A stretch of DNA of 64,000 nt from Thermoanaerobaculia bacterium (GTDB lineage: Bacteria > Acidobacteriota > Thermoanaerobaculia > Gp7-AA8), in the NCBI GenBank assembly GCA_036398925.1, contig DASWOB010000095.1, positions 22,616-86,615 on the forward strand, read 5' to 3'. The number at the start of each line of letters is the position of its first letter. Position 1 is the first letter of the stretch. The notes beneath the pieces were generated by a model that saw only the letters and a program-made list of their open reading frames with translations, did not search any database and had not been told where the DNA came from. Shown here one piece after another: positions 3,573-40,655 of this stretch. The translations under genes and the position numbers were made by a program.

Positions 3573-5177
3573 TTACATCGAAGACATGGCGTTGAGGAAC
3601 TCGCCGTTGGAGCGGGTCTTGTCGAGTTTCTCCACCAGCAGTTCCATCGATTCGACGGTCGACAGCGGGGAAAAGACTTTGCGCAGGACCCAGATGCGAT
3701 TGAGCTCGTTCTTCTCCAGCAGCAGTTCTTCTTTACGCGTGCCGGAGCGATTGATGTCGATGGCCGGGAAGACGCGCTTGTCGGAGAGCTTGCGGTCGAG
3801 GTGCACTTCCATGTTGCCGGTGCCCTTGAACTCCTCGAAGATGACGTCGTCCATGCGCGAGCCGGTATCGATGAGGGCCGTGGCGATGATGGTCAGCGAG
3901 CCGCCCTCTTCCACATTACGCGCGGAGCCGAAGAAGCGCTTCGGACGCTGCAGCGCGTTGGAGTCGACACCGCCCGACAGGACCTTGCCCGACGGCGGAA
4001 CGACGGTGTTGTAGGCGCGCGCCAGGCGGGTGATCGAGTCGAGCAGGATCACCACGTCGCGCTTGTGCTCGACGAGGCGCTTGGCCTTCTCGATGACCAT
4101 TTCGGCGACCTGCACGTGGCGCGAGGCCGGCTCGTCGAACGTCGAGGAGATGACCTCTCCCTTGACGCTGCGCTGCATGTCGGTGACTTCTTCCGGGCGC
4201 TCGTCGATCAGCAGGACGATGAGCGTGATCTCCGGATGATTGGTGGTGATCGAGTTGGCGATCGACTGGAGGAGCATCGTCTTGCCGGTACGCGGCGGCG
4301 CGACGATCAGACCGCGCTGCCCCTTGCCGACCGGCGCGATGAGGTCGAGCACACGCGACGACATGTACTGCGGTACCTCGAGGCGGATGCGCCCCTGCGG
4401 ATAGAGCGGGGTGAGGTTGTCGAAGAGGATCTTGTCGCGTGCGACGTCGGGATGCTCGAAGTTCACTGCCTCGACCTTGATCAGGGCGAAGTAGCGCTCC
4501 CCTTCCTTCGGCGGACGCACCTGGCCGGAGACCGTGTCGCCGGTGCGGAGGTCGAAACGGCGGATCTGCGACGGCGAGACGTAAATGTCGTCCGGGCCCG
4601 GCAGGTAGTTGTACTCCGGCGCACGCAGGAATCCGAACCCGTCCGGCAGGCACTCCAGCACACCCTCGGAGAAGATCAGGCCCGACTTCTCGGTCTGCAC
4701 CTGCAGGATGCCGAAGATCAGGTCCTGCTTGCGCATGCCGGAGGCGTTCTCGACGCCGAGCTCTTTGGCGAGCTTCGACAGATCCGGCAGCTTGATCTCT
4801 TTCAGCATGCGGATGTCGAGGGTCTCGGAGGCGGGCTGCTGCTGCGCGGGCGCGGCGGCGGCTTTCGCCTTGCCGTTGCCGTTGCCACCGTGCTCTTTTT
4901 CGGGAGCGGCTTCGCTGGCGGGCTCCGGCTGGGGAGCGCTCTTGGCGGCTTTCGGCTCGGCTGCCGGTTTCGCCTCAGCCACCGGCTTCGCCTCGATCAC
5001 CGGCTCGTCGGCGACGGCCGGCGCGGGCTCTTCCGCTGCGGGTGCCGGACCTTCTTCGACGGGAGCCGCGGCAGCCGCTTTCTTCCGTGGCGCGCGTTTC
5101 GGCTTCTCCGGCTTTTCGGCCGGAGCGTCCGGCTCCAGTACCGCGGTGGCTTCGTTGTCCTGTTCGTGTTGTGCCAT
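3573..5177 (-). CDS. rho: transcription termination factor Rho, with ~110 aa low-complexity A/P/E/K-rich N-terminal extension
   Basis: Start chosen at MAQHEQDNE (ATG at 5177), the first ATG after the engB stop. Conserved Rho core motifs are present: ...LPDGFGFLR..., [31 protein letters not shown] (P-loop), [22 protein letters not shown]. The ORF-track 641 aa frame over-extends into engB. Confidence 0.93.
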
Positions 5178-5191
5178 GTGGCTTCCTCGCT

Positions 5192-5770
5192 TCACAGTCG
5201 CGCGTAGATCTCGCGGCGAATGTCGTCGATTCCTTTTTTCGTTACCGCCGATGCCGGGATCAGCTCCGCGGGGTCGACGTTCAAATCGGTGGCAATGGCC
5301 CGCCGGCTGACGGTGAGCTGATTGTTGGAGAGTTTGTCGCTCTTGGTGAGGACGACCTTCTCGCCGATGGTCAGCGAGCGTGCCCATTCGTGCATCTGCT
5401 GATCGTGCTCGCCCGGGGTGCGGCGGGCGTCGAGGAGAAGAAAGATCAGGCGGAGCTCCGCGGAGTTTTCGAGGTAGCCGCGCACCAGCGTCCCCCACTC
5501 CTTCATCATGGTTTTGGCCACTTTTGCGTATCCGTAGCCGGGGAGATCGACGAGGTAGAACTTTTCGTTGATCAGATAGAACTGCACCGCCTGCGTCTTG
5601 CCCGGTGTCTGTGAGACGCGCGCGACGCCTTTGCGTTTCAGCACGGCGTTGATCAGCGACGATTTGCCGACATTGGAGCGCCCGACCATCGCGAACTGAG
5701 GCCGGCCGTCACGCGGGAAATCGTCAGGCTGGTACGCCGCCCGAGAGAATTCGACTGTACGGATATCCAA
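5192..5770 (-). CDS. engB: ribosome biogenesis GTP-binding protein EngB/YsxC (YihA)
   Basis: [14 protein letters not shown] (G1), [10 protein letters not shown] (G3) and TKSDKL (G4) motifs. 192 aa, typical length. Confidence 0.9.
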
Positions 5771-16389: not shown

Positions 16390-17058
16390 CTAGAAGAACC
16401 GCGTGCGGATCACGGTCCGCGCGATCTTCAGCGTGTCGAGCAGCGGCCGGTAGTGGCTGGTCGAGATGCCGTCGACGAATCCGAGCTCGATCGGGATGGT
16501 GACGATCGCAAAACCGCGCCGGCCGGCGCGGACGATCACTTCGCTTTCCATGTCGAAGCCGTCTCGGCGCAACGGGACCTCGCGCATGATCCGGGAGGAG
16601 TAGAAGCGGAAGCCGCTCTGCGAGTCGGTGATCTTCACGCCCGACGCTTTGGCGATGCACCAGGCGGAAAAACGGTTCGCGCGACGGCGGCGGGGAAGCA
16701 TGTGCTCGAAGAGGTGCGCGCGTCCGCCGATGATCAGGTCGGCGTTCGTTTCGGTCGCGGCGCGGAGGAATTTCGGGATCTCGCTCGGCAGGTGCTGTCC
16801 GTCGGCGTCGAGAGTGATCACCCCTTCGTAGCCGTTCGCGAGCGCCCACGCGAAACCAGTCTTGAGCGCGCCCCCTTTGCCGCGGTTGACCTCGTGGCGC
16901 AACACGATGGCGCCGTGCTCGCGCGCCACGTCGCTGGTGCGATCGGAAGAACCGTCGTCGATGACCAGCACCGGCTCGAGATGCTGACGCGCCGCGTCGA
17001 TCACCGGACCGAGCGTCTTCGCCGCGTTCAGCGCCGGAATGATCGTCACGAGCTTCAT
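16390..17058 (-). CDS. family 2 glycosyltransferase (GT2, GT-A fold)
   Basis: IIPALNAAKTL, VIDDGSSDRT and LDADGQH (DxD) motifs. 222 aa. Last gene of the ACP-DH-KS-CLF-GT2 operon (4-nt overlap with upstream gene). Confidence 0.8.
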   Translation of the reverse strand: MKLVTIIPALNAAKTLGPVIDAARQHLEPVLVIDDGSSDRTSDVAREHGAIVLRHEVNRGKGGALKTGFAWALANGYEGVITLDADGQHLPSEIPKFLRAATETNADLIIGGRAHLFEHMLPRRRRANRFSAWCIAKASGVKITDSQSGFRFYSSRIMREVPLRRDGFDMESEVIVRAGRRGFAIVTIPIELGFVDGISTSHYRPLLDTLKIARTVIRTRFF

Positions 17059-18230
17059 GCACCCTCCCGCGAGACGACCGCGCAGACGATGCCGCCGCCG
17101 GCGGAGAGCGAGGGGATGAGGATGTGCTGCAGCTCCGCGGAACGCCGCTCGCGATTGACGGCCAGTTCGCCCGATTCGAATCCGGCCGAGGCGTGGAGCA
17201 TCTGTTCGTCGAGTGCGATCAATGCCGCGGCGAGTTGCAACGCACCGCCGGCCGCGTACTCACCGAAGAAGCCCTTCGTCGCGACGACCGGCGGAAGGCG
17301 TTCGCCGAAGAGTGATTGAATGGCGCGCGCTTCGAGGGCGTCGCCGCGTACCGAGCCATTCGCCGACGCATAGATCGCATCGATCGAATCGACCGAGATC
17401 TCCGCGTCGTCGATGGCCGCACGCGTCGCGGTGACGACGCTCCCCTCGTCCGTGCCCCAGTCGGAGATCGACGCGGTCGCGTCACGCGCGATGCCGAAGC
17501 CGGAGAGCCAGCCGTACGGCTTGCGCACGCCGGCGCCGGCCACCAGAATCGCGCCCCCTTCGCCGAGGGCGAAACCGTTGCGGCGTTCGTCGAACGGGCG
17601 CGCCGCTTCATCGTCGCCGTGCGCGAGCGCACCGATGCGATCGAGGACGCTGAACAGCATCTCGTTCGCTTCCTCCACGCCGCCGATCAGCGCGGCCTGG
17701 ACGTTCTCTTTCACCAGTTGCGTGGCGGCGTACATCGTGGCCGCGAGCGCCGACGACTCGCGCTGGGTGATGGTGATGTTGAAGCCGCGCAGACCGTGCT
17801 CGATGGCGATGTGGCTGCCGGGCGCGTTCGCCACCGATTCAGCGAAGAGCTGCGGCGGCGCGAGCGCGGCCCCCTTCTCGACGTACTCCTGCATGTACTC
17901 CACCGAGGTCTGCACCGGGCCGAAGGCGGTCCCGAGCGCGACCCCGCTGTTCGGATCGAGCGAGCAGCCCGCATCGTCGAGCGCCAGTTTCGCGGCGGAG
18001 ACGGCCAGCCGCGAGAGCGCGTTCATGCGGCGCATCTTCATCGGCGGGATGAAGTCGCGCGGCTTGAAATCGCGGACGAGCGCGGCTTTGTGCGCGGCGA
18101 GACCCGCGGTGTCGAAGCGGTCGACTTCGGCGATCGCGCTCGTGCCTGACGACAGCAGCTCGCGAAACGCGGAGACGCCGATCGCGCCCGGCGCGATGAC
18201 GCCGATGCCGGTGATCGGGATGCGTGTCAT
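17055..18230 (-). CDS. beta-ketoacyl synthase-like protein lacking the active-site Cys/His/His (chain-length-factor / KS-beta-like partner)
   Basis: Thiolase-fold length (391 aa) and KS N-terminal motifs (ITGIGVIAPGA). The position of the catalytic Cys reads ...TQRESSALAAT... (no Cys). The HGTGT position reads ASANGS (no His). It is adjacent to a bona fide KAS II. Confidence 0.7.
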   Translation of the reverse strand: MTRIPITGIGVIAPGAIGVSAFRELLSSGTSAIAEVDRFDTAGLAAHKAALVRDFKPRDFIPPMKMRRMNALSRLAVSAAKLALDDAGCSLDPNSGVALGTAFGPVQTSVEYMQEYVEKGAALAPPQLFAESVANAPGSHIAIEHGLRGFNITITQRESSALAATMYAATQLVKENVQAALIGGVEEANEMLFSVLDRIGALAHGDDEAARPFDERRNGFALGEGGAILVAGAGVRKPYGWLSGFGIARDATASISDWGTDEGSVVTATRAAIDDAEISVDSIDAIYASANGSVRGDALEARAIQSLFGERLPPVVATKGFFGEYAAGGALQLAAALIALDEQMLHASAGFESGELAVNRERRSAELQHILIPSLSAGGGIVCAVVSREGA

Positions 18231-18243
18231 AGGCGGCGCGGGG

Positions 18244-19464
18244 TTATACCACGCGCCGAAACAACAGCGACACGTTGCTCCCGCCGAAGCCGAACGTGTT
18301 CGACAGGACGTTTTCCATCGGCAGCGAGCGTGGCGTGTGCGGGATGTAGTCGAGCGTGCAGTCGGTCGCGTTCTCCGCGAGCCGCAGCGTCGGCGGCGCG
18401 ATCTGGTTCTGCAGCGCGAGCACCGTCACGACCGCTTCGATGCCGCCGGAAGCGCCGAGGGTGTGGCCAAAGTACGACTTGCTCGAAGAAACCGGCACGC
18501 CGCTGCCGACCGCGGCGATGATCGCCTTCGTCTCCGCGGAATCGTTCAGAAGAGTGCCGGTGCCGTGTGCATTCACGTACTGAACGGAAGCCGCCGTGAG
18601 CCGCCCCTCCGCGAGCGCGCCACGCATCGCCGCTTCCGCGCCGCGTCCATCTTCGGCAGGAGCGGTCGGATGATGCGCATCGCACGACGCGCCGTAGCCC
18701 GAGAGCTCCGCGAGAATGGTTGCGCCGCGCGCAACGGCGTCGTCCCAGCGTTCGAGGATGAGGAATGCAGCCCCTTCGCCGAGGGTGATCCCCTTGCGGG
18801 AGAGGCCGAACGGCGAGCACGGCTCCGGATCGACCGCCTGCAGCACGTTGAAGCCGCTGTAGGTCAGGCGGCAGAGCGCATCGCTTCCACCGGCAATGGC
18901 TACGTCCGCATGCCCGGAACGGAGGTAATCCGCCGCCATGCCGATCGCCGCACCGGCCGAAGCGCACGCGGTGGCGTTCGACACCACACCGCCACCGAGC
19001 TTGAAGACGCGCGCCACGGCATCGCTCGGACCGGAGGTCGGCTGCTGCAACACGCGCGACGCGGGAGCGCGACGGCGCCCGCGGATGATCCGCCGGAAGT
19101 AGTAATCCTCCCCTTCGAGCAGACCGCCGGTCGACGTCCCGGTGGAGACGATCGCGCGATCGAGCGCCAGCGGTGCGGTTGCACCTTCGTTGGCCTGTGC
19201 GATCGCTTCCGCTGCCGCGCTGACGGCCATCCGGTCGGTGCGCGAGAGACGTTTCGCCTCACGCTTGTCGATCGGAATCGCCACGTCACCCACTTGCGCG
19301 GCAATGTCGGTCGGAAACGTCTCTCCTGGAAAGCAGGTCAGCTTCTCGATCCCTGCCCGCGATTCGACGATCGCCTGCCACACCTCGGCCTTGTTGCGGC
19401 CGATCGAGCAGAGGATGCCGGCGCCGGTGACGGCGATTCGAGTGGTGAGGTCAGGTTTGCGCAT
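18244..19464 (-). CDS. 3-oxoacyl-[ACP] synthase II (FabF-type elongating ketosynthase)
   Basis: Catalytic Cys context NATACASAGAAIG, NAHGTGT, and a second His in FGHTLGASGG. 406 aa. Confidence 0.88.
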   Translation of the reverse strand: MRKPDLTTRIAVTGAGILCSIGRNKAEVWQAIVESRAGIEKLTCFPGETFPTDIAAQVGDVAIPIDKREAKRLSRTDRMAVSAAAEAIAQANEGATAPLALDRAIVSTGTSTGGLLEGEDYYFRRIIRGRRRAPASRVLQQPTSGPSDAVARVFKLGGGVVSNATACASAGAAIGMAADYLRSGHADVAIAGGSDALCRLTYSGFNVLQAVDPEPCSPFGLSRKGITLGEGAAFLILERWDDAVARGATILAELSGYGASCDAHHPTAPAEDGRGAEAAMRGALAEGRLTAASVQYVNAHGTGTLLNDSAETKAIIAAVGSGVPVSSSKSYFGHTLGASGGIEAVVTVLALQNQIAPPTLRLAENATDCTLDYIPHTPRSLPMENVLSNTFGFGGSNVSLLFRRVV

Positions 19465-19843
19465 CGGGCGTAGGAACTGCCGGAGCCGCGAGATAAAACC
19501 TGCCTCGCACGACTTCTACTCCATGGATGCGTCCGATGCCGCTGAAGCGGAAAATGCCGCCGAAATCGGCCTCGCGGGTCATCGTGATCGCCACCGTGTC
19601 GCCCGGTTCGATCGCGCGCAGCACCTCGCAGCGGTCGATGCCGGTCAGGTAGCCGTGCTGTGCTCCCTCGAACGAGAGTCCACCCGCGAACTGCGCCATC
19701 GCCTCGACGACCATCACCTCGGGCGTCAGGAAGTCGTTCGCCGTGCAGACGAAGACTCCCTCGATGGTCTTTTCATCGCGGTGGGTGACCGCGGACGCGC
19801 CACGAAACGGGATCTGATGCGGGAGCTGGGAAAGCCAGGACAA
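19451..19843 (-). CDS. hotdog-fold 3-hydroxyacyl-ACP dehydratase (FabZ/FabA-like, ApeI-like)
   Basis: 130 aa. Hotdog dehydratase pattern with His in ...SAVTHRDEKTIEGVF... and a conserved acidic residue downstream. It overlaps the KAS II start by 14 nt. Confidence 0.65.
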   Translation of the reverse strand: MSWLSQLPHQIPFRGASAVTHRDEKTIEGVFVCTANDFLTPEVMVVEAMAQFAGGLSFEGAQHGYLTGIDRCEVLRAIEPGDTVAITMTREADFGGIFRFSGIGRIHGVEVVRGRFYLAAPAVPTPDAQT

Positions 19844-20119
19844 CTACGCGTTCGCTTCCGCCTGCGCGAGACGGCTGCCGACGTAGTCCGCGAGCGTGGC
19901 GATCGAGCGAAAGTACTCGCGCGCGCTCCCCTCGTTCTTCACCTTGATGCCGAACTCGGTCTCGAGCATGACCACGATCTCGAGGGCATCGATGGAATCG
20001 AGGCCCAGGCCGCCGGCGAAGAGCGGATCGTCGTCGTTGATGTCGTCGGGGGTCATGTCCTCGAACTTGAGGCGCTCGATGAGAAGCTCTTTGAGTTTGC
20101 GGCGGAGATCCGTGGTCAT
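19844..20119 (-). CDS. acyl carrier protein
   Basis: 91 aa. Phosphopantetheine attachment motif GGLGLDSIDALE. First gene of the operon. Confidence 0.88.
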   Translation of the reverse strand: MTTDLRRKLKELLIERLKFEDMTPDDINDDDPLFAGGLGLDSIDALEIVVMLETEFGIKVKNEGSAREYFRSIATLADYVGSRLAQAEANA

Positions 20120-20276
20120 AAGTAGTCGTGATTGTATTCGCTAAGCCGTTGCGGCCTCAGGCGGGGTTTTCGAGTCGATGACGAGGACATCTCGTATCGG
20201 GTTCGGACAACGCACGCTGAGCTCAGCAGCATTCCGCGCTGCCTGACACTGCGAAGCGTGAGCTGCCTCACATTGG

Positions 20277-21677
20277 ATGACAGCGCGCAAACCTTTGGTT
20301 ATTCTGCATTGCGGTCCAATGCTCCAACGCTTCCTCTCCCTCGTCTCGGCCCACCCCGATGCCGTTGCGGTCATCGAAGGTGACACCGGCCTCGTCCTCT
20401 CCCGTGCGGCGCTGCTCGCTCGTGCGGAGGAGATGGCCGCGCGTCTGGCCGCGGCCGGCCTGCGCGCCAGCGATGCCGTGGCGATGCAGCTGCCGAACTC
20501 GTCGGAGCTGATCGCGACCGTCATCGCCGCCCTGCAGCTGAAGCTGGTCATCGTCCCGATCGATCGTGACGCTTCCGACACAGAAGTCGCGACGATCCTC
20601 GGCCATTTTTCGATCAAGGGTCTCGCTTATCGCGACGACCGCGGCTCTCACGCGGTGGCGATCTCGACGCGGGCCGTGACCTCCAGACCGAACGTGCCGG
20701 CCGAGACGCGGCTGATCAAGCTGACGTCCGGCTCGACCGGACGGCCGAAGGGGATCGCCGTCAGCGAGGCGAACCTGATCGCCGACGCGCTCCACATCTG
20801 CACGACGATGGACATTCATCCATCCGACCGCAACCTCGGCGCGATCCCACTCTCCCATTCATACGGCTTCTCGAACCTCGTCACGCCTCTCCTGATCCAG
20901 GGAACGCCAGTGGTGGTTTCCAACGACTACCTCCCGCAGTCGCTGATCGAGCTCGCCAACCGCTACGGCTGCACGGTCGTGCCGCTGATCCCGATGGTCT
21001 TCGAACACCTCACGGCCGTTGCACACGGACACTTCGAGACGGTGCGCACGTTCCTTTCGGCCGGCGCGCCGTTGCCGGCGAGCACGTCGCGCCGCTTCCG
21101 CGAGCGGTTCGGAACGGACGTGCATTCGTTTTACGGCTGCAGCGAATGCGGCGGCATCACGTACGACCGCGCCGGAGCGGCCGTGGAGCGGGGCAGCGTC
21201 GGTGAGCCGATGGTCGGCGTGACGCTGACGGTCGACGGGCCGCGGCTGCGCGTACGCAGCGAGGCGGTGGCGCTCGGCTATCTCTTCGACGCGGAGACGT
21301 TCGAGCCGTTCGAGGCCGGCGCGTTCCAGACCGACGACCTGGTGGAGCTCCGCGACGGGGAGGTGTTCCTGACCGGCCGCGCGAGTGACCTCATCAACAC
21401 CGCGGGCAAAAAGGTCAACCCGCGCGAGGTCGAGGCGGTGCTGCTGCAGATCGAAGGCGTGCTCCAGGTCAAAGTCTACGGCGAGCAGGCCGGCGCGCGC
21501 GGCGAGGTCGTTGCGGCCGCGATCGTAGCAACGCCGAACGTGACCCGCGAGCAGATCCGCGAGTTCTGCCGCGCGCGGCTCTCGCTGCACAAGGTGCCGC
21601 GGATCCTGAAGCTCATCGATCGGATTCCGGTCGACGAGCGCGGCAAGGTCAAGCGCGCGGCGCTGGCGATGCTGTAG
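20277..21677 (+). CDS. AMP-dependent synthetase/ligase (acyl/aryl-CoA ligase or acyl-ACP synthetase family)
   Basis: AMP-binding motif LTSGSTGRPKGIAV. A10 Lys region near the C-terminus (GKVKRAAL). An alternative start at ATG 20319 (MLQRFL...) is possible. It is divergent from the ACP operon and its 3' end overlaps the halogenase gene by about 29 nt (convergent). Confidence 0.8.
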   Translation: MTARKPLVILHCGPMLQRFLSLVSAHPDAVAVIEGDTGLVLSRAALLARAEEMAARLAAAGLRASDAVAMQLPNSSELIATVIAALQLKLVIVPIDRDASDTEVATILGHFSIKGLAYRDDRGSHAVAISTRAVTSRPNVPAETRLIKLTSGSTGRPKGIAVSEANLIADALHICTTMDIHPSDRNLGAIPLSHSYGFSNLVTPLLIQGTPVVVSNDYLPQSLIELANRYGCTVVPLIPMVFEHLTAVAHGHFETVRTFLSAGAPLPASTSRRFRERFGTDVHSFYGCSECGGITYDRAGAAVERGSVGEPMVGVTLTVDGPRLRVRSEAVALGYLFDAETFEPFEAGAFQTDDLVELRDGEVFLTGRASDLINTAGKKVNPREVEAVLLQIEGVLQVKVYGEQAGARGEVVAAAIVATPNVTREQIREFCRARLSLHKVPRILKLIDRIPVDERGKVKRAALAML

Positions 21678-23211
21678 CGACCGCCTCGACCTTCTTCTTC
21701 CGCAGCTTCTTCCACTGCAGCCGCACGTTGTCGAGCTCCGCTTTCAACCAGAACTTCACGCCCCGTCCTACCATCTGCAGCGGCGCGAGATTGAGGTTGA
21801 AGTACGCCTTAATGCGGCGGCCGTCGTTGTACTTGCCACCCTCGCCGACGGCGCGGCGCGCCTCCGCGATCGCCTTGAAGCGGCGGTTGTACGTCCGCAT
21901 CATGTGGTAGCTGACGAAGGCCGGCTTCGGCCCGAGCACAGGCATCCAGAAGAACTTCTTCATGAAGCGATACGCCGGGATGACCACGAACATGTAGTAC
22001 TGCGCCGTGTCGATGAGAAACGCGGCGCTCAGGAGATCCGACTCTCCCATGTAGTAGTACTTGTCCTTGTACGCGGCGCGGAAGAAGCGCCAGTAGGAGC
22101 GGACGAAGGTGGTGTTGTGCTCCGCGATCGCCGGCGCCACATCCTTCCCCATCGCGTCCATCTTGACGATCAGCATCGTTGCCTCGGCCGTGAACGAGGC
22201 GTGATCGAGGCCGGGCGAGTAGTACGGATCGAGAAACGCCGCCGCATCGCCCAGCAACGCCCACCCTTTCCCCATGTACTGCTTCGTGGCATAGGCGAGG
22301 TGCGAGTAGAAGCGGAGGTCGTCGAGCCGCGGCTCCGCGCCTTCGAGGATCTCGGCCAGCGAGGGGATGTTCCGGAGGAAGGCGACAAAGTCTTCCGCCC
22401 GGTTCTTGCTGTGATGCAGGTCGACCAGACGCTTGTCGAAGACCACGCCGATGCTGGTCTCGCCGTTGCCGAGGGGGATCACCCAGATCCAGTAGCCGTA
22501 GCCGACGTAGTGATTGGTGCCGAGGCGGCGCGACCCGATGTTACGGGAGGCCAGGTCGCTCTTCGCCGCGATGTCGTCGATGTGGCGGACGTTCTTCCAG
22601 CGGCACCAGATGGCGGCGGTGGGATGCTCGTCGTTCCGCTCGATCAGATTCAGCTTGCGGCCGATGAAGTTCACCCGGCCGCTCGCGTCGAGCAGCCAGC
22701 GGCAGGTGAGCTCGCGCGTCTCGCCGTTCACCTCGACCTTCACCGTATTGTTGAAGTCGGCGAAGGTGACGTCGAGCGCTTTCGCCGGACGCCAGAGCTC
22801 GGCGCCCTCGGCAACAGCGGTCGCGAGCAGATGCTCGTCGAGCGCATCGCGCCTCAGCTGGAAGGACGGAACCGCGCTGCGGAGGAAGCCGCCTGCCTCG
22901 GTGGCGTTCTCGTGGCCCGTCACCTTCGCGTTCGAGAACCAGTAACGGAGCCCCTCTTTCGGGAGGTGCTCGCTCTCCAGGTGCTGCCACATCCTGAGGC
23001 GGCGGGTGAGGAACATCGCCGACATCTCGGTGGTGGCCTCACCGACCTTCTCATCGAAGGCGGTGGCCTTCTCGATGATCAGCACCCGGAGGTCGGGGCA
23101 CTCGCGGCGCAGCAGGATGGCCGTCGAGGCGCCGCTGAAGGCCCCTCCGAGAATGATGACGTCGTACCGGTCGGACATTCGGCCATCCAAACGCATAGGA
23201 CGGCTGTTCAT
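21649..23211 (-). CDS. flavin-dependent halogenase (tryptophan-halogenase family, PF04820-like)
   Basis: N-terminal FAD GxGxxG (ILGGAFSG). KVGEATTE (GxGEAT-like). Diagnostic WxWxIP (GYWIWVIPLGNG) and C-terminal FxxPxxSxG (FLDPYYSPG). Confidence 0.75.
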   Translation of the reverse strand: MNSRPMRLDGRMSDRYDVIILGGAFSGASTAILLRRECPDLRVLIIEKATAFDEKVGEATTEMSAMFLTRRLRMWQHLESEHLPKEGLRYWFSNAKVTGHENATEAGGFLRSAVPSFQLRRDALDEHLLATAVAEGAELWRPAKALDVTFADFNNTVKVEVNGETRELTCRWLLDASGRVNFIGRKLNLIERNDEHPTAAIWCRWKNVRHIDDIAAKSDLASRNIGSRRLGTNHYVGYGYWIWVIPLGNGETSIGVVFDKRLVDLHHSKNRAEDFVAFLRNIPSLAEILEGAEPRLDDLRFYSHLAYATKQYMGKGWALLGDAAAFLDPYYSPGLDHASFTAEATMLIVKMDAMGKDVAPAIAEHNTTFVRSYWRFFRAAYKDKYYYMGESDLLSAAFLIDTAQYYMFVVIPAYRFMKKFFWMPVLGPKPAFVSYHMMRTYNRRFKAIAEARRAVGEGGKYNDGRRIKAYFNLNLAPLQMVGRGVKFWLKAELDNVRLQWKKLRKKKVEAVATASPAPRA

Positions 23212-23212
23212 T

Positions 23213-23920
23213 TCAGAAGATCTTTTCGATCGCCTTCTGGATCGCGACGGCGCCGCCGCCGATCAGAATGCCGAAATACACCAGCGTGGCGACGTTCATC
23301 AGGTGCCCGAGCAGGATGCAGACGCCGTCGCGCTGCATCATGCCGATGGCAAAGAAGAGGATGGCCACGGCCGGCAGCGTATTGCTGAACGGGATGAGGC
23401 CGAACGGCGCCATCAGCAGCACCGCGCCGAGGATGAGCGCGGAGTTGTTGACCACGCTCATGAACCGGCCGCTGGTCAGCCCCCGCATGCGCAGCGGACG
23501 GCTGATCCGCTCCAGACGGCGGAACCACTTGAGACCGCGAGCCATCCCGCCGCGCAGCTTCTCGCTCGAGACCGCCCGCCGCTTGAGCCAGTCCGGCAGC
23601 CAGATCGGACGATTGAGGAGACGGCTGAACGACAGCAGGAGAATCGCCCCGCCGAAGACCGTGCTGACGCCGGGGATCGAAACCGGGACCAGGAAAATGA
23701 TGGTGAGGAAGGCGGTCAGCAGCATGATGCCCTCGCGTCCGACGAGATCGCGGATCTCGACGAGCGTCACCCCTTCCGGCGGGAGGCGCTCGATCGCCGC
23801 CATCAGCTTTTCGGCGATCGGCTCGCCATCATCGTCCATCGTCACGCTCATCCGTTCACCTCGAAGCGGCGCATCTTGCGCGAATGGGGCCAGCGAGGCA
23901 ACCCTCATTACGGCAGGCAC
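23213..23920 (-). CDS. ExoD-family membrane protein (exopolysaccharide synthesis ExoD-like)
   Basis: Polytopic membrane protein whose sequence profile matches the ExoD family (FLTIIFLVPVSIPG..., LPAVAILFFAIGMMQRDG). An alternative start lies at MSVTMDDD (23851). Its stop abuts the halogenase start. Confidence 0.6.
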   Translation of the reverse strand: MPAVMRVASLAPFAQDAPLRGERMSVTMDDDGEPIAEKLMAAIERLPPEGVTLVEIRDLVGREGIMLLTAFLTIIFLVPVSIPGVSTVFGGAILLLSFSRLLNRPIWLPDWLKRRAVSSEKLRGGMARGLKWFRRLERISRPLRMRGLTSGRFMSVVNNSALILGAVLLMAPFGLIPFSNTLPAVAILFFAIGMMQRDGVCILLGHLMNVATLVYFGILIGGGAVAIQKAIEKIF

Positions 23921-33359: not shown

Positions 33360-35353
33360 AGAAACTGCTTCTGCTGATTTTTCTTGCTACGACGATCGAC
33401 GCCCAGCGCGTCATGACCTTCGAAGACCTGGCCGCGATGCGCCGCATCGGCTCGCCCAGGGTCTCGCCGGACGGCAAGTGGCTGGCCTACGACGCCTCGA
33501 CCGTCGACCTGGCCAAGAACGTCCGCCGCAGCGCGATCTACCTGCGGCCGGCCGGCGGCGGTGCGGCGAAGCAGCTCACCGATGGCGCGCGCCAGGACGA
33601 CAGTCCGGTCTGGTCGCCCGACGGGAAGACGATCGCCTACCTCTCGAACCGGGACGGCAATCCGAAGCAGGTCTACCTCTATGACGTCGCCACCGCGAAA
33701 TCGACGAAGCTGACCAACCTCTCGGGCGGCGCCGGCTCACTGAAGTGGCTGCCGGACGGCTCCGGCCTGATCCTCGTCTCGCAGGTCTACGCCGACTGCG
33801 GCGTCGAGCCGCAGTGCACCGAGAAGAAGGCCGCCGCCGGGGAGAACGCTCCGACGCAAGCCCGCATCATCGACAACCTCCTCTATCGCCACTGGAACGA
33901 GTGGCAGGCGCCGACCCGCGCGCACATCATCCACGTCCCGCTCCGCGGCAACCCGCGCGACCTGACCCCGGGCGCCTTCGACGCGCCCCCCTTCTCCGTC
34001 GGCGGCGGCGACGAGTTCGACGTCTCCCCCGACAGCAGGGAGCTGGTCTACGCCCGCAACGTCGAGGAGCGTCCGGAGCGCTCGACGAACGCCGATCTCT
34101 ACCTCGTGCCGCTGACCGGCGGCGAGGCGAAGCGGATCACCTCCCGCACCGGCGCCGATACCTCCCCCAGCTACTCCCCCGACGGCAAGTGGATCGCCTA
34201 TCGCTCGCAGGCACGCAACACCTTCGAGTCCGATCTCTGGGAGCTGTGGCTCCTCGACCGCGCCACCGGGCAGTCGCGCCGCGTGGCCAGCGACTTCGCC
34301 AACTGGGTGCAGTCGATCACCTGGGCCCGCGACAGCAGGTCGCTCTACGTGACGGCGCCGCTGGCCGGCAAGGTGCCGATCTACGAGATCGCCCTCGACG
34401 GCAAGACCACCGTCATCCACAACGCCGGCGCCGCCCACAACATCGACGCGGGCCGGAACGCGATCTACTTTGCGATGTCCACCCTCCGCCGGCCCGACGA
34501 CATTTACTCGCTCGACACGAGCGGCAAGGTGGTGAAGCTGACCACCGAGAATGACGCGCTCCTCGCCCAGCTCTCCCTCGGCGAAACGTCCGACCTCTGG
34601 TGGACCGGCGCCGACGGCGCACGCGTGCAGGGGCACCTCATCAAGCCGCCCAACTTCGACCCGTCCAAAAAGTACCCGGCCCTCGTGCTGATCCACGGCG
34701 GCCCGCAGGGGGCATGGAGCGAGTCGTGGTCGTACCGCTGGAACCCGCAGCCGTTCGCGGCGCGCGGCTACGTGATCCTCATGCCGAACCCGCGCGGCTC
34801 CACCGGCTTCGGCCAGCAGTTCGTCGAGCAGATCTCGCAGGACTGGGGCGGCCGCGTTTACACCGACATCATGAACGGCGTCGACACCCTCGCCGCAATG
34901 CCGTTCGTCGACGGCAACCGTCTCGGCGCCGCCGGCGGCTCCTACGGCGGCTACATGGTCAACTGGATCCTCGGCCACTCCACCCGCTTCAAAGCGCTGG
35001 TCTCGCACGCCGGCGTGTACAACCTCGAATCGATGTACGGCGTGACCGAGGAGCTCTGGTTCCCGGAATGGGAGTTCGGCGGCACGCCGTGGGACAACCC
35101 GGAGCAGTACGAAAAGTGGTCGCCGCACCGTTTCGCGAAAAACTTCGCCACCCCCACCCTGGTCACGCACGGTGAGCTCGATTTCCGGGTGCCGATCGGC
35201 GAGGGGCTGCAGCTCTTCACCGCCCTGCAGCGCCGCGGCGTCCCCTCACGGCTGCTCTACTTTCCGGACGAGGGGCACTGGGTGCTCAAGCCGCAGAACT
35301 CGAAGCTCTGGTACCAGACCGTCGGGGAGTGGTTCGACCGGTACCTGAAGTAG
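33356..35353 (+). CDS. S9-family serine peptidase (prolyl oligopeptidase / dipeptidyl aminopeptidase type) with N-terminal beta-propeller
   Basis: Signal peptide MKKLLLLIFLATTIDAQ. Propeller repeats (SPDGKWLAY, SPDGKTIAY). Catalytic Ser in GGSYGGYM, then Asp and His downstream (THGELDFRVP, DEGHWV). Confidence 0.88.
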   Translation: MKKLLLLIFLATTIDAQRVMTFEDLAAMRRIGSPRVSPDGKWLAYDASTVDLAKNVRRSAIYLRPAGGGAAKQLTDGARQDDSPVWSPDGKTIAYLSNRDGNPKQVYLYDVATAKSTKLTNLSGGAGSLKWLPDGSGLILVSQVYADCGVEPQCTEKKAAAGENAPTQARIIDNLLYRHWNEWQAPTRAHIIHVPLRGNPRDLTPGAFDAPPFSVGGGDEFDVSPDSRELVYARNVEERPERSTNADLYLVPLTGGEAKRITSRTGADTSPSYSPDGKWIAYRSQARNTFESDLWELWLLDRATGQSRRVASDFANWVQSITWARDSRSLYVTAPLAGKVPIYEIALDGKTTVIHNAGAAHNIDAGRNAIYFAMSTLRRPDDIYSLDTSGKVVKLTTENDALLAQLSLGETSDLWWTGADGARVQGHLIKPPNFDPSKKYPALVLIHGGPQGAWSESWSYRWNPQPFAARGYVILMPNPRGSTGFGQQFVEQISQDWGGRVYTDIMNGVDTLAAMPFVDGNRLGAAGGSYGGYMVNWILGHSTRFKALVSHAGVYNLESMYGVTEELWFPEWEFGGTPWDNPEQYEKWSPHRFAKNFATPTLVTHGELDFRVPIGEGLQLFTALQRRGVPSRLLYFPDEGHWVLKPQNSKLWYQTVGEWFDRYLK

Positions 35354-35386
35354 GGCTGAGGGCCAGGGGAGAGACGGGCCCGGCGG

Positions 35387-35722
35387 GGCGGGAACCGGGC
35401 GTGTCACGGCGAGAACCAAGCGTGTCCTGGCGAGAATCAGGTGTGTCTCGCCGAGAATCAGGTGTGTCGTGGCGAGAATCAGGCGTGTCTCGCCGAGAAT
35501 CAGGTGTGTCGTGGCGAGAATCAGGCGTGTCTCGCCGAGAATCAGGTGTGTCGTGGCGAGAATCAAGTGTGTCTCGCCGAGAATCAACTGTGTCTCGCCG
35601 AGAATCAACTGTGTCCCGGCGAGAATCAGGTGTGTCCCGGCGAGAATCGAGTGTGTCTCGCCGAGAATCAACTGTGTCCCGGCGAGAATCACCCGTGTCG
35701 CGCCGGGAATCGACCGCGTCCT
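35387..35722. repeat. tandem direct repeat array, 21-bp period x ~16 copies (GGCGAGAATCAGGYGTGTCTC / GCCGAGAATCAGGTGTGTCGT alternating)
   Basis: Directly visible periodicity. Copies degrade toward both edges. Each unit junction forms the quasi-palindrome TCTCGCCGAGA. It lies in the convergent gap between the S9 peptidase and gvpA. Confidence 0.85.
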
Positions 35723-35742
35723 GACCGAACCAGGGCGAAGAA

Positions 35743-36033
35743 CTACGGGCGGGTGGTGCCGGTCGGCGTAGCCACGCCGGTGCCGGTGCCGATGCCGCCG
35801 CCACCTTCGCCGGGTCCGAGGGAGGGACGGGCGACGGTCGAGGTGATACCGACCGCTTCGGCGTACTTCAGGTATGTATCGATCGAGGCGATGACGACGC
35901 GGGCTTCGACCGTGATCAGGTCGATGCCGACGAGCGAGATGCGGACCCAGGCGTCGACGACGATGCCTTTGTCGAGAATTCGATCGAGGACATCGATGAG
36001 ACTCGTACCGCCCGGTGCGCGTTCGACAGCCAT
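35743..36033 (-). CDS. gvpA: gas vesicle structural protein GvpA (with Gly/Thr-rich C-terminal tail)
   Basis: [52 protein letters not shown] is near-identical to the canonical GvpA core. Confidence 0.9.
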
Positions 36034-36040
36034 GAATTAC

Positions 36041-36379
36041 CTACCTTTCCTCTCTCTCAGGGAGGGTCTTGCCTGCGTTGAGTTGCCGCTCGAGCTCGGC
36101 CACGCGATCGCGGAGGGCGTCCACGTCGTCGGCGCCGCCGCGGAGGGCGCGCGGATCGCTCGAATAGAAGCGGTCCGAGCGCCACCAGTTGATGCCGATC
36201 GCCTCTGCTTTGTCGATCGAGCAGATGACCAGGCGCAGCTGGATGGTCAGCAGCTCGACGTTGGCCAGCGACACCTTCACGTCGCCGGCAACGACGAGCC
36301 CCTTGTCGAGAATCTTGTCGAGGATGTCCACCAGACCCTGCGGCTGGCGCTGGAGCGCTCCCCGATCGTCAATTGCCAT
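36041..36379 (-). CDS. gvpJ: gas vesicle protein GvpJ (GvpA/J family)
   Basis: LVDILDKILDKGLVVAGDVKVSLANVELLTIQLRLVICSIDKAEAIG. 112 aa with a C-terminal extension. Confidence 0.85.
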   Translation of the reverse strand: MAIDDRGALQRQPQGLVDILDKILDKGLVVAGDVKVSLANVELLTIQLRLVICSIDKAEAIGINWWRSDRFYSSDPRALRGGADDVDALRDRVAELERQLNAGKTLPEREER

Positions 36380-36420
36380 GGTCAGACGTGTACCGGATGT
36401 GCGGCGTGCGAGTCAATGGT

Positions 36421-36753
36421 TTACTCCCACATCTTTACCGGCCCCAGCTTCAGGTTGAGGTCCTCGTCGGAGAGGCCGAAGGTCCGTTTCAGCTCCGCCA
36501 TCTTCTCCTCGAGCTTCATCAGGGCGTTGCCCAGCCTCTCGATCTCCTCGTCCGTCAGGTTGCCGGCGTCCATGCGCCGCAGGGCCTGTTTCTCGAGGAG
36601 ACGGCGCACCAGCTCGATGATGGAAAGCACCAGTTTCGCGAGCCCGTTCTCGACGATCTCCGAATCTGCGGAGATGCGCTCCGGCACCACCGACTCGGTG
36701 AAGGTCAGCGCCTCGCGCAGCTCTTTTTCTTCATTCGCGATCAGCATCGGCAA
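36421..36753 (-). CDS. gvpK: gas vesicle protein GvpK
   Basis: LAKLVLSIIELVRRLLEKQALRR is the GvpK signature helix. 110 aa. Confidence 0.75.
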   Translation of the reverse strand: MPMLIANEEKELREALTFTESVVPERISADSEIVENGLAKLVLSIIELVRRLLEKQALRRMDAGNLTDEEIERLGNALMKLEEKMAELKRTFGLSDEDLNLKLGPVKMWE

Positions 36754-37369
36754 AGACCTCCAGCGGCCACGGTCCGGAGAGGAGAAAGGCGACGCCGGTG
36801 GCCTTGAGCGCCTCCCCCGCTTCGCGGACCTGATCGATCGACGCGCGGTCGACCAGCATCGCCAGCTCGATCGACTTTTCGTCGCGATGGCTCCAGCGAT
36901 GCTGCACGGCCAGCGGCACCATCCGCTGCTCGACCTGCTCCCCGAACTGCGGATCGACGCTCGCCCCGTGCGTCGCCGCGTGCAGCGCTTTCAGGTACTC
37001 CGCGCCGCTGGTGAACTCGCGGCGATCCGGCCGCGCACGCGGTGACGCCGCCGCGACCTTGAGCGTCATCTCCACGCGGTCGCCATGCGCCTCCAGCGTC
37101 GCCTTCCACTGCGCCACATGCGCGGCGGTCCTGGCCCGCGCGTCGTCGTCGCTGGAGATGGTGAAGCCGTAGCGGATGGCCAGGAACGTCGCTTTCTCGA
37201 GCAGCCGCGCGCGCGTCTGCGCCACGTGCAGGAGCAGCTCGCGATCGCCGAGCGCCTGCTGCTCCGCGACCGGGACCGCGCTGAGAAAGAGATCGGCGGA
37301 GGGGATGGCCCGCGCCAGCGGCTCGACGTCCTCGCGGCGCAGGTGCGCGCCGATGACGATCGACTTCAT
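36731..37369 (-). CDS. gvpL: gas vesicle protein GvpL/GvpF family
   Basis: 212 aa with a GvpL_GvpF-like profile (...LLHVAQTRARLLE..., FLLSGPWPL near the C-terminus). It overlaps the gvpK start. Confidence 0.65.
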   Translation of the reverse strand: MKSIVIGAHLRREDVEPLARAIPSADLFLSAVPVAEQQALGDRELLLHVAQTRARLLEKATFLAIRYGFTISSDDDARARTAAHVAQWKATLEAHGDRVEMTLKVAAASPRARPDRREFTSGAEYLKALHAATHGASVDPQFGEQVEQRMVPLAVQHRWSHRDEKSIELAMLVDRASIDQVREAGEALKATGVAFLLSGPWPLEVFADADRE

Positions 37370-37548
37370 TTCGGCCGGCTCGTGCGGATCACCGCATCGA
37401 CGTTGGCCAGAATGACGTTGAGGCCGAGGTAGAGCAGATCGACGTCGCCGATGGAGATCACGGCTTCGCCGGCAATCACCACCCCGCGGTCGAGCAGGTG
37501 GTCGAGCGTCTCGAGCAGGGCGAGTTCTTCGATCTGGTCGTCAGGCAT
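37366..37548 (-). CDS. gvpS: small GvpA/J/S-family gas vesicle protein (GvpS-like)
   Basis: Start at MPDDQIEELALLETLDHLLDRGVVIAGEAVISIGDVDLLYL (ATG 37548). The upstream part of the track ORF ([15 protein letters not shown]) is translation of the family-A repeat. Confidence 0.7.
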   Translation of the reverse strand: MPDDQIEELALLETLDHLLDRGVVIAGEAVISIGDVDLLYLGLNVILANVDAVIRTSRPK

Positions 37549-37552
37549 AGTG

Positions 37553-37640
37553 GATTCGGAAGCGATGAGTGATGAGAGATGAGCGATGAACACGCTCCGC
37601 GTCAGTCCCGTTCATCGTTCATCTCTCATCGTTCATCGCT
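37553..37640. repeat. family-A heptamer hairpin repeat inside the gvp operon (between gvpF and gvpS)
   Basis: gcgatgagtgatgagagatgagcgatgaac-acgctccgcgtcagtcccg-ttcatcgttcatctctcatcgttcatcgctcg. Confidence 0.7.
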
Positions 37641-38405
37641 CGTTCCTGCAAAGCTGTACGGCGGCCACGGCCCCGTCACCCCCACCACCACCCCCTCCGG
37701 CTCGTAGCGGGCCAGCAGTTCATCCTGCAATGCCTGCAACGCCGGTTCCTCGTCGCGGTTGATGAGGACGTTGATCTGCGGGAAGGCGCCGCCGCGGCGT
37801 TCGCGGGTCTCGGCGATCGACTCGCACTTCAGGCGGCCGAGGAGCTCGCGTTCGACTTCGGCCAGCAGGTCGTGCTCGGCCTGGCGCGCGGCGCTTTTCT
37901 TCTGCTCTTCGAGTTTCTTGCGCAGCAGGAACGCTTTGCCGGCGGCAGCCGATTCGATCTCCGTTTGCAATGCACGCAGCGAGGCCACGCGGGTGACGAT
38001 CGAGGCGTTGAAGCGCTCCGGGTCGATCTCCAGGCGCAGCGTCCACTCCTGCTTACCGTCCAAACGGTCGAGCGTCTTCGCCAGCAGCTCGCGGTTCTCG
38101 TGCAGGTAGGCGCGCAGCGCTTCGGCGCTGCTGAAGAGGGTGAAGGCGCGCAGCGGGACGATGGCGGTCTGCTTCATCAGCTCCGCAACGACGGCCTGGT
38201 GGCGGTAGCCGATCGCGCCGAGCCATTCCAGGTCGTTGGCGCGCTGGTCGATGACCGCCTGCGAGAACGCCTCTTCGGCGACGGGAGTGAACACGGCGGC
38301 GATGTCGTCGATCGAGACACTATCGAAGCGCCGCGAGCCATCGACCGCCTCGACGTCGGCTGTCGCGGGCTGGCGCGTCACGGCGTAGACGTAAAGCACG
38401 CTCAC
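37626..38405 (-). CDS. gvpF: gas vesicle protein GvpF/GvpL family
   Basis: MSVLYVYAVTR... N-terminus and VTGPWPPYSFAG C-terminal motif typical of GvpF. 259 aa. Confidence 0.75.
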   Translation of the reverse strand: MSVLYVYAVTRQPATADVEAVDGSRRFDSVSIDDIAAVFTPVAEEAFSQAVIDQRANDLEWLGAIGYRHQAVVAELMKQTAIVPLRAFTLFSSAEALRAYLHENRELLAKTLDRLDGKQEWTLRLEIDPERFNASIVTRVASLRALQTEIESAAAGKAFLLRKKLEEQKKSAARQAEHDLLAEVERELLGRLKCESIAETRERRGGAFPQINVLINRDEEPALQALQDELLARYEPEGVVVGVTGPWPPYSFAGTSDER

Positions 38406-38411
38406 GTTGCG

Positions 38412-40196: not shown

Positions 40197-40232
40197 CTCT
40201 CATCTCTCATCTCTCATCTCTCGACGATCATC
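40141..40232. repeat. family-A heptamer hairpin repeat between gvpG and the ArsA-like gene
   Basis: cgatgagagatgagagatgagcgatgagcg-tccgcccgg-ttcatcgctcatctctcatctctcatctctcatctctcg. Confidence 0.7.
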
Positions 40233-40551
40233 GCTCGCCGTAGCCGGTATAAATGCCGATGCCACCTTCGTCTTCGCCACGCTCGGCGGCCATCTGCCGG
40301 GCGATCGCCTCGCGCCGCGCGCGGATGTCGCGCAGCGCCTGAAAGATGACCTGCTCCTCGGCCACGTAATCTTCCTCGCTGATGTCGCCCACCTCGAGCC
40401 GCATCTGCAGCTCGATCAGCCGCTCTTTCCACGGCTGGTCGTTCATCAACTCCTCGTCCGCCAGCTTCTGGATCGTGTGCATGACCCAGCGGAAGCCGGC
40501 GATCGGCCCGGTGATCGGGAGGAGGAGGATGTCGTCGAGGAGAAAGGCCAT
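40228..40551 (-). CDS. gvpG: gas vesicle protein GvpG
   Basis: MAFLLDDILLLPITGPIAGFRWVMHTI... followed by an acidic coiled region, a GvpG-like profile. 107 aa. Confidence 0.7.
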   Translation of the reverse strand: MAFLLDDILLLPITGPIAGFRWVMHTIQKLADEELMNDQPWKERLIELQMRLEVGDISEEDYVAEEQVIFQALRDIRARREAIARQMAAERGEDEGGIGIYTGYGER

Positions 40552-40555
40552 GTTT

Positions 40556-40652: not shown

Positions 40653-40655
40653 CAG

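Follow-up and report, generated by a model that had tools for sequence, protein, structure and literature searches.

In the xanthomonadin pathway the ligase XanA2 loads 3-hydroxybenzoate onto the acyl carrier protein (ACP) XanC, and ketosynthase (KS) and dehydratase enzymes extend this starter to a brominated, membrane-bound aryl polyene (PMC6859482). The aryl polyene (APE) clusters of Escherichia coli CFT073 and Acinetobacter baumannii combine an ApeE-type starter ACP with a hotdog dehydratase, an adenylate-forming ligase and a FabF-like KS whose partner is non-catalytic. In ApeE, the residues F33, A44, K67 and F70 close the usual cavity and, together with a G-x-G-x-G loop and LED and NAE insertions, let the protein keep its p-hydroxybenzoyl starter in a surface pocket (PMC12624758). 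Cassettes of an ACP, a FabZ homologue and two KS enzymes are also found in anammox bacteria, in which cluster I has the order amxACP-amxFabZ-amxFabF2-amxFabFmut (bioRxiv 10.64898/2026.05.19.726425, PMC10139942), and in rhizobia, in which the cluster for very-long-chain fatty acids (VLCFAs), acpXL-fabZXL-fabF2XL-fabF1XL-(adhA2XL)-lpxXL, takes its ketoreductase (KR) and enoyl reductase from type II fatty-acid synthesis (FAS) (PMC5613085). The anammox proteins amxFabF2 and amxFabFmut have been shown to form a heterodimer resembling a KS/chain-length factor (CLF) pair, amxFabFhet, which decarboxylates malonyl-ACP and forms acetoacetyl-ACP (bioRxiv 10.64898/2026.05.19.726425). The locus considered here, at positions 16,390 to 23,920 of a 64,000-nucleotide stretch of a Thermoanaerobaculia genome (phylum Acidobacteriota; assembly GCA_036398925.1, contig DASWOB010000095.1, positions 22,616 to 86,615; hereafter the window), encodes a dedicated ACP, a hotdog protein, two KS homologues (KSa and KSb), a GT2 glycosyltransferase, an adenylate-forming ligase, a flavin-dependent halogenase (FDH)-like protein (HAL1) and an ExoD-family membrane protein. 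It is a conserved biosynthetic unit built around its dedicated carrier protein: Thermoanaerobaculia vertically retain the ACP, hotdog, KSa, KSb and GT2 genes as a tight operon, accompanied by the ligase and by one or two halogenases. A literature search for Thermoanaerobaculia together with ketosynthases or biosynthetic gene clusters returned no description of such a cluster.

Each of the described systems shares part of this plan. Anammox cluster I has the same order of ACP, hotdog dehydratase, active KS and full-length, triad-less KS, and neither cluster includes a KR. Nevertheless, the anammox partner KS has Val or Thr at the Cys position where KSb has Glu, amxFabZ keeps the catalytic His that the hotdog protein of the locus lacks, and the ACP of the locus is ApeE-like; furthermore, the anammox cluster continues with phytoene-desaturase-like and B12 radical SAM enzymes, whereas the locus holds GT2, ligase and halogenase genes. 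The rhizobial cluster resembles the locus by gene order alone, with an ACP, a FabZ homologue, two KS genes and then a transferase gene, and no KR, but its transferase is the acyltransferase LpxXL rather than a GT2, and it has neither ligase nor halogenase. When gene content is compared, the xanthomonadin pathway is similar in logic (ligase, dedicated ACP, halogenation), although it needs a KR, the chorismatase XanB2, acyltransferases and approximately 11 genes in all, and the extra genes are not in the locus. With the APE clusters the locus shares the ApeE-type ACP, ligase, KS pair and hotdog gene. It lacks, however, several genes that those clusters contain in addition: those for a second KS (ApeR) and a second ACP, a KR (ApeQ), the ApeI/ApeP dehydratase pair, a thioesterase, a methyltransferase, LPLAT acyltransferases and export (LolA/MMPL/DUF3261). 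The locus is not categorically new, since all of its components have known families and it follows the logic of APE and xanthomonadin synthesis. Its combination of an APE-type starter ACP with a full-length Glu-type partner KS of the FAS/anammox kind, together with a His-less hotdog protein, no KR, two halogenase paralogues and class-wide vertical inheritance, is without a characterised member.

Conservation was assessed by a genome scan with an alignment of KSb, taking one genome per species; 121 relatives were found, and the best 80 of these were used, with the gene table compiled by tblastn. All of these 80 came from Thermoanaerobaculia or from unclassified Acidobacteriota metagenome-assembled genomes (MAGs), at 61-79% identity. 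The set ACP-hotdog-KSa-KSb-GT2 was found in 80/80 loci, with KSa next to KSb and GT2 next to KSb each time, and its order was kept in every locus long enough to show the genes; the ligase lay upstream and divergent in nearly all of the loci long enough to show it. Recurrence in 80 genome loci places the arrangement beyond chance, and the neighbouring genes are conserved as a unit across genomes, a point on which the earlier note had made its reading of this DNA depend. HAL1 was found in most loci, at 75-93% identity, and a second halogenase gene, HAL2, which is absent from the window, lies directly upstream of and co-directional with the ACP gene as part of the ACP operon in 46 loci (among them L007, L019, L025, L030 and L032; e.g. 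L025:6546-7799). A census of the 58 loci with both ACP and ligase, in which the window was counted under HAL1 only, found both halogenases in 27, HAL1 only in 14 and HAL2 only in six, plus five in which the flank was too short to score HAL1; four loci had no halogenase, plus two with a short flank. At least one FDH of the PltA/CndH class was therefore present in at least 52/58 scorable loci. The presence of two FDH paralogues at two positions beside one cassette suggests a functional link and not mere synteny. ExoD was found in only approximately seven related loci and is thus not in the conserved unit, although the earlier note had listed it with the cluster; in L001 a VTT/DedA-domain gene takes its place.

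The distance between the ligase and ACP genes ranged from 8 bp to 5.3 kb among the relatives, the usual 1.3-kb form being that which contains HAL2. When checked for KR and thioesterase genes, these gaps held only HAL2 or low-GC accessory DNA. In relatives the gap is an insertion hot spot, receiving 2-5 kb of DNA of 58-60% GC with small, poorly coding or toxin-antitoxin-like open reading frames (ORFs) (e.g. L017:3242-8110, L032:2745-6296, L058:4392-7685 and L025:3221-6546).

The ACP provides the strongest single hint, read from its sequence, that the carried substrate is aromatic or bulky. It matches the NF006617/PRK09184 model at its cut-off of 70 bits, shares by BLAST 45% identity with the ApeE of E. 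coli and 39% with that of A. baumannii, and has the A. baumannii ApeE structure 9LS6 as its best PDB match. Alignment to 9LS6 places F34, A45, R66 and F69, an AGGLG loop and FED and KNE insertions at the hallmark sites of ApeE, and these residues are invariant or nearly so in 58 orthologues.

The two KS homologues are of a different kind. KSa has an intact triad, with Cys in ATACASAG and His in NAHGTGT and in FGHTLG, and the description of KSb in the earlier note as a KS-like protein without Cys/His/His is borne out by alignments that place Glu (QRESS), Asn (SANGS) and Glu (FGE) at these positions. In all relatives of KSb down to approximately 34% identity the Cys is replaced by Glu or by Gln/Asn, neither His is kept, and the second of them gives way to Glu. 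KSb is presumed to be a non-catalytic, CLF-like partner of KSa. It stands apart as a family of its own: the sole full-length neighbour in a library clustered at 50% identity was 58% identical and the next approximately 41%. KSa scored 353 bits against TIGR03150 fabF (cut-off 494), 345 against PRK07314 (cut-off 387) and 314 against NF006618/PRK09185 (cut-off 407); its score below the fabF equivalog cut-off indicates that the pair is not a housekeeping FabF. Its PDB matches were FabF (257 bits), 9s5h_B (256 bits) and the APE ketosynthases 6qsp and 7f27 (181-183 bits), and its identity was 42% with the KS that accompanies a Glu-type CLF in L090, 37% with FabF, 34% with ApeO and 32% with ApeR. The likening of the pair to the APE type in the earlier note found no clear support: KSa is no closer to ApeO than to FabF, being if anything nearer to the latter, and KSb is full length (391 aa) with Glu at the Cys position, whereas the ApeC CLF of APE clusters is truncated (204-240 aa). 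BLAST of KSb gave no match to E. coli ApeC, and matched the short A. baumannii CLF only at E=0.008 over 78 aa.

The best PDB match of KSb was 9s5h_C (2e-38), ahead of FabF and of the actinorhodin (Act) CLF, and its match to PF13723 was weak (27 bits). The 9s5h structure is probably the anammox amxFabF2/amxFabFmut heterodimer, because its chain C has Val at the Cys position and the description in the preprint matches. By analogy with chains B and C of this solved relative, KSa and KSb may form a heterodimer in which KSb shapes the acyl tunnel. Among the more distant relatives of KSb are Glu-type partners with a separate KS and KS-partner fusions of approximately 800 aa; the clusters around them also encode LolA, MMPL, lipid A-type acyltransferases, B12 radical SAM enzymes and ApeI-like dehydratases. 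The nearest CLF relatives outside the class lie mostly on contigs of 1.5-2.5 kb, with only a KR or methyltransferase neighbour. Gene context outside Thermoanaerobaculia comes from a few single look-ups, and the profile search for distant CLFs reached true FabFs after approximately 50 matches. Among these other metagenome genomes, two (L087:6426-12355 and L088:632-6561) encode active-KS/triad-less-KS fusions of approximately 784 aa beside two B12-binding radical SAM genes and a SpoU-type methylase, a set reminiscent of ladderane-type clusters. L090 (6427-13355), which holds the closest relative found for KSa, combines a lipid A-type acyltransferase, a polysaccharide deacetylase, LolA, the KS, its Glu-type partner KS, a B12 radical SAM enzyme and a Met_synt_B12-like protein. 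The cispentacin families AmcF and AmcB were considered and rejected, because the scores (223 and 42 bits, respectively) fell short of the thresholds of 325 and 80 bits.

HAL1 carries GGAFSG, WIWVIP and FLDPYYSPG, the last two being the WxWxIP and FxxPxxSxG motifs recognised in the earlier note, and these and K85 are invariant in its orthologues. Its PDB matches were PltA (8.6e-18), CmlS, 3NIX, Bmp2 and Mpy16, and it is predicted to be a distant member of the PltA/CndH/Bmp2 group (65-67 bits; 17-20% identity in structural alignments). An AF2 model built with 29 homologues had a pLDDT of 68.5, which fell below 50 for residues 82-119, a stretch that spans K85. The top 40 Foldseek PDB matches of this model were all FDHs, except for the unassigned flavoprotein 3NIX; they included PltM, PltA, CtcP, FasV, ChlB4, Mpy16, Bmp2, CndH, CmlS and RadH, with reductases and monooxygenases ranking below. 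K85, in LPKEG, aligns to PltA K72, or to K73 (the equivalent of PrnA K79) with a one-residue shift. HAL2 (417 aa) has FPRFQIGESLLP, WFWLIPV and FLDPIFSTGV, with its Lys in PKYG, and its scores against FasV (221 bits), CmlS (200) and CndH (195) mark it clearly as an FDH by sequence. Both proteins share with PltA, Bmp2, Mpy16, CndH, CmlS, FasV and ChlB4 the FAD motif GxGxxG, WxWxIP, FxxPxxSxG, the Lys region and the fold. HAL1 differs from the carrier-protein-dependent halogenases in being distant from them and in having a long helical C-terminal extension of approximately 140 aa, which is common to uncharacterised homologues near type I polyketide synthase (PKS) genes in Janthinobacterium and Gloeothece. 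On a plasmid of Gloeothece verrucosa PCC 7822 (L093:8198-13873), three tandem HAL1-like genes lie beside a type I PKS and a gene of the carotenoid-oxygenase family. The Acinetobacter APE clusters also hold an FDH-like enzyme of the PltA/CndH class with WxWxIP, 31% identical to HAL2 and 28% to HAL1. No flavin reductase gene adjoins HAL1. FDHs require an activated aromatic or enolic carbon, as is known from the enzymology of PltA, Bmp2, CndH and CmlS.

The core motifs of the ligase (TSGSTGRPKG, YGCSECGG, GRASDLINTAGKKV and GKVKR) are intact, and the enzyme is presumed from its sequence to load a starter acid onto the ACP. It probably starts at Met15, an ATG at 20319 that lies 14 codons into the ORF, because conservation among the orthologues begins there (MLQRFLSL...). 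No NCBIfam family reached its cut-off with the ligase, and the top NCBIfam and PDB matches include fatty-acyl-CoA ligases. The GT2 is Dpm1/PpgS/AglJ/GtrB-like, with a GT-A domain and its DAD motif in LDADGQH (LDADGQ being invariant in the orthologues); it scored 106 bits against NCBIfam PpgS and 103 against AglJ, both under their cut-offs, and was far under the cut-offs of all equivalog models. It falls in the same subfamily as the GT2s of APE clusters: 29% of residues are identical in the N-terminal half of E. coli ApeJ, which is a GT2, and 28% in the separate GT2 protein of the A. baumannii APE cluster.

The hotdog protein is the most divergent member of the operon as regards domain matches, having no Pfam match even at E<=10 and a score against NCBIfam FabZ that lies below the cut-off of 113 bits, with PDB FabZ matches that span residues 39-113 only. 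BLAST found no match to it among the E. coli CFT073 and A. baumannii APE proteins, and hhalign gave E=0.0026 and a probability of 12% with ApeP, and 0.4% with ApeI. His9, in LPHQIPFR (the N-terminal LPHxxPF motif of FabZ), and Glu47, in VEAMAQ, are invariant in 66 orthologues. Of the catalytic Glu and His of FabZ, to which the earlier note had likened the protein, Glu47 is retained and the canonical His is missing. A single-sequence structure model had a pLDDT of 51.8, too low for a fold search.

The gene set probably builds a halogenated lipid that is linked to a sugar and is of acyl or aryl-polyene-like type. It is quite possible, but by no means assured, that the unit makes a halogenated, sugar-linked aryl-acyl lipid or pigment of the cell envelope by extension of an aromatic starter with KSa/KSb. 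The ligase would adenylate a carboxylic acid, for which 4- or 3-hydroxybenzoate, coumarate or another hydroxy-aromatic acid is the likeliest candidate, and load this starter onto the ApeE-type ACP. HAL1, and HAL2 where present, would chlorinate or brominate the electron-rich, carrier-bound starter or an intermediate, using reduced flavin from a reductase encoded elsewhere. KSa, in a heterodimer with the dead KSb, would extend the chain by malonyl units, with KSb shaping the tunnel and setting the chain length; reduction of the beta-keto group would fall to the housekeeping FabG, after the example of rhizobial AcpXL and anammox cluster I, and dehydration by the hotdog protein would give a short or medium unsaturated (polyenoic) chain. 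The Dpm1-like GT2 would then supply or attach a sugar, either as a glycosyl ester or as a sugar-phospholipid anchor like that of the GT2 part of ApeJ. A glycosyl ester is made by CrtQ in staphyloxanthin synthesis. Such a product would be akin in logic to APE and xanthomonadin, but its synthesis would involve far fewer genes and would rely on a different KS/CLF pair, one of FAS-like kind. A proposal without a KR has precedent, since the rhizobial VLCFA and anammox cluster I cassettes of ACP, FabZ and two KS lack one as well. The aryl-polyene reading advanced in the earlier note is supported only in part: it has in its favour the ApeE-like ACP, the APE-like GT2 and a halogenase with a counterpart in Acinetobacter APE clusters, and against it a KS pair closer to FabF than to ApeO/ApeC, a hotdog protein without the canonical His and the lack of any KR, thioesterase or export gene.

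Several observations weigh against such an aryl-acyl product. No KR was found in the 64-kb window or in the flanks of the relatives, nor any short-chain dehydrogenase/reductase gene in the window or the flanks of L001, and in Xanthomonas the dedicated KR (FabG3/XanH) is essential and not replaceable by other FabGs (PMC6859482). The window has no enoyl reductase, thioesterase, LPLAT acyltransferase, LolA or MMPL gene, and neither the ApeI/ApeP pair nor thioesterase, LPLAT, LolA/MMPL, DUF3261 or methyltransferase genes occur in the window and the 10-kb flanks of the relatives; the earlier note had remarked on the lack of KR, methyltransferase and MMPL genes in the window, and the neighbourhoods of the relatives agree. 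Without a thioesterase, acyltransferase or exporter, release and anchoring of the product are unexplained. Nothing in the window was seen to supply a starter such as hydroxybenzoate or coumarate (no chorismatase, UbiC or TAL), and the ligase is not diagnostically similar to ApeH (25% identity in E. coli, 19% in A. baumannii) or to aryl-acid ligases. Both KSa and KSb are nearer to FAS-type enzymes than to APE KS; the hotdog protein has a non-conserved Cys33 where FabZ has its canonical catalytic His (GHFP motif), and may not be a dehydratase. The catalytic Lys of HAL1 can be aligned to within one position only, and four loci keep the cassette without a halogenase. Lastly, the region is syntenic with housekeeping genes throughout the class, so that co-occurrence could be partly inherited gene order.

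The main alternative is an FAS-type module for special fatty acids, which is unlikely overall. The ligase would here be an acyl-ACP synthetase loading an ordinary fatty acid onto the ACP, KSa/KSb and the hotdog protein would elongate it to an unusual length with housekeeping FabG and FabI, the GT2 would build a glycolipid head group, and the halogenases would act alpha to the beta-keto group, on an enol, alkene or alkyne, or elsewhere in the molecule. The gene order is that of acpXL-fabZXL-fabF-fabF-lpxXL and of amxACP-amxFabZ-amxFabF2-amxFabFmut, neither of which has a KR; KSb is nearest to 9s5h_C, KSa scores as high with FabF as with anything, and the fatty-acyl-CoA ligases among the top matches of the ligase point the same way, as does class-wide vertical inheritance beside housekeeping genes, which would suit a core envelope lipid. 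However, the ACP has the blocked-cavity and surface-pocket hallmarks of the aryl-carrying ApeE and not those of an FAS ACP, and FDHs cannot attack unactivated alkyl carbons. In addition, the hotdog protein is unlike amxFabZ and FabZ at the catalytic His, and there is no acyltransferase such as LpxXL.

A non-reducing haloacyl pathway, which we consider improbable, would explain together why the locus has no KR and the hotdog protein no dehydratase His. KSa/KSb would make only beta-ketoacyl-ACP, in keeping with the formation of acetoacetyl-ACP from malonyl-ACP by the anammox heterodimer; the halogenase would chlorinate the active methylene, as proposed for CmlS, and the hotdog protein would be a thioesterase or cleaving enzyme that frees a small halogenated acid or ketone, which is then perhaps glycosylated. 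CmlS is among the top matches of both HAL1 and HAL2, and the ligase and HAL1 are a conserved convergent pair. CmlS acts with the ligase-like CmlK in the proposed formation of a dichloroacetyl group, but this chemistry is itself not fully established, and the other top matches (PltA, CndH, Bmp2, Mpy16, FasV and ChlB4) all have aromatic rings as their targets. Longer, bulky chains, moreover, are suggested by the ApeE-type ACP and by a partner KS that shapes the tunnel, and the four loci that retain the cassette have no halogenase to perform the step.

Inherited synteny alone, with ACP-hotdog-KSa-KSb-GT2 serving one function and the ligase, halogenases and ExoD unrelated to it, has a similarly small chance of being correct. 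In most relatives the 20-kb neighbourhood is collinear throughout (SecA, ProC, DinB ... M28 peptidase, ParA-like, CDP-alcohol transferase, Tig, ClpP), ExoD is clearly dispensable, and foreign DNA often lies between the ligase and the ACP. Chance is nevertheless an unlikely cause of the two placements, HAL2 being inserted in 46 loci directly upstream of the ACP and in its direction, and HAL1 standing on the other side; ligase, ACP, KS, FDH and GT2 also recur together in APE clusters, and a stand-alone ACP/KS cassette needs a loading enzyme. That the KS pair is an ordinary housekeeping FabF/FabB of fatty-acid synthesis is very improbable, for although the top PDB scores of KSa are with FabF enzymes and it is 37% identical to named FabFs, it falls under the fabF and PRK07314 cut-offs, its partner lacks the triad, the ACP is of the ApeE and not the AcpP type, no fabD, fabG, fabH or fabI gene lies near KSa and KSb, and the unit is conserved with a ligase, a GT2 and halogenases.

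The aryl-acyl reading can be extended to a class-wide family of halogenated envelope lipids or pigments, in which a FAS-derived KS/Glu-CLF heterodimer, of the type known from anammox ladderane clusters, is primed via an APE-type ACP and two halogenases act on the carrier; as a whole this wider proposal is rather doubtful. If true, it would represent a hybrid architecture without a characterised member and possibly a widespread source of organohalogens in soil. Soils and sediments commonly harbour Thermoanaerobaculia. The relatives are known only from MAGs, and the gene set occurs in at least 80 species-level genomes and in thousands of metagenome proteins; it probably makes a core envelope lipid or a protective pigment. 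Should the product be halogenated, an abundant uncultured lineage would be linked to the natural formation of organochlorine or organobromine compounds in soil. With the full-length Glu-type partner KS, the idea of a chain-length factor in a fatty-acid-type pathway, introduced with amxFabFhet, reaches another phylum and chemistry. At approximately 7 kb and seven genes the cassette is small, which makes heterologous expression easy, and it may reveal the minimal gene set for an APE-like product.

Gene calls were based on ORF listing, filtering by third-position GC and domain searches (Pfam, NCBIfam), and all eight genes proposed in the earlier note were recovered by ORF and domain searches at the positions it gave (Table 1). 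The operon is tight, although its five genes do not all overlap as had been stated there: hotdog and KSa overlap by 14 nt and KSb and GT2 by 4 nt (ATGA), but ACP and hotdog abut and KSa and KSb are 13 nt apart. Similarly, ExoD and HAL1 do converge on the ligase, with a 29-nt overlap of 3' ends, but are co-directional with one another, 1 nt apart, rather than convergent. In the window these two genes are co-transcribed, and ExoD is accessory to the unit, not core. Promoter and terminator scans gave no signal above chance.

Table 1. Positions of the genes and the intergenic region of the locus in the 64-kb window
Feature	Position	Strand	Basis or remark
GT2 glycosyltransferase, small, soluble, 222 aa	16390-17058	(-)	PF00535, 86 bits
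KSb, ketosynthase homologue without catalytic triad, 391 aa	17055-18230	(-)	PF00109 and PF02801
KSa, FabF-type ketosynthase	18244-19464	(-)	Cys-His-His intact
Hotdog protein, divergent, FabZ/ApeP-like, approximately 122-130 aa, start uncertain	19451-19843	(-)	NCBIfam FabZ, 41.7 bits
ACP, dedicated, ApeE type; Ser42 in LGLDSID	19844-20119	(-)	NF006617/PRK09184, 70.1 bits
Divergent intergenic region between ACP operon and ligase	20120-20276		HAL2 and/or inserted DNA here in relatives
Adenylate-forming (AMP) ligase, 466 aa	20277-21677	(+)	PF00501 and PF13193
HAL1, flavin-dependent halogenase-like, 520 aa	21649-23211	(-)	PF04820, 47.5 bits
ExoD-family membrane protein	23213-23920	(-)	PF06055, 160 bits

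The G+C content of the window is 63-70%. One flank of the locus encodes Rho, Lon, ClpX, ClpP, trigger factor, a CDP-alcohol phosphatidyltransferase, a ParA-like ATPase and an M28 peptidase, and the other a CarboxypepD_reg protein, DinB, ProC and SecA. The Rho factor (641 aa; 3573-5498, minus strand) has an N-terminal extension of approximately 230 residues before its Rho_N domain. At 51615-53444 on the minus strand, a radical SAM gene comes after the gene for a XerC/D-type tyrosine recombinase, which may be only the housekeeping XerC/D. An ORF of 897 aa (42533-45226, plus strand) has a third-position GC of 0.92 and no Pfam match. A gas-vesicle cluster at 34951-41495 on the minus strand comprises two GvpA-type genes, GvpK, three GvpL/F genes, GvpG and a 594-aa double ArsA-like ATPase.

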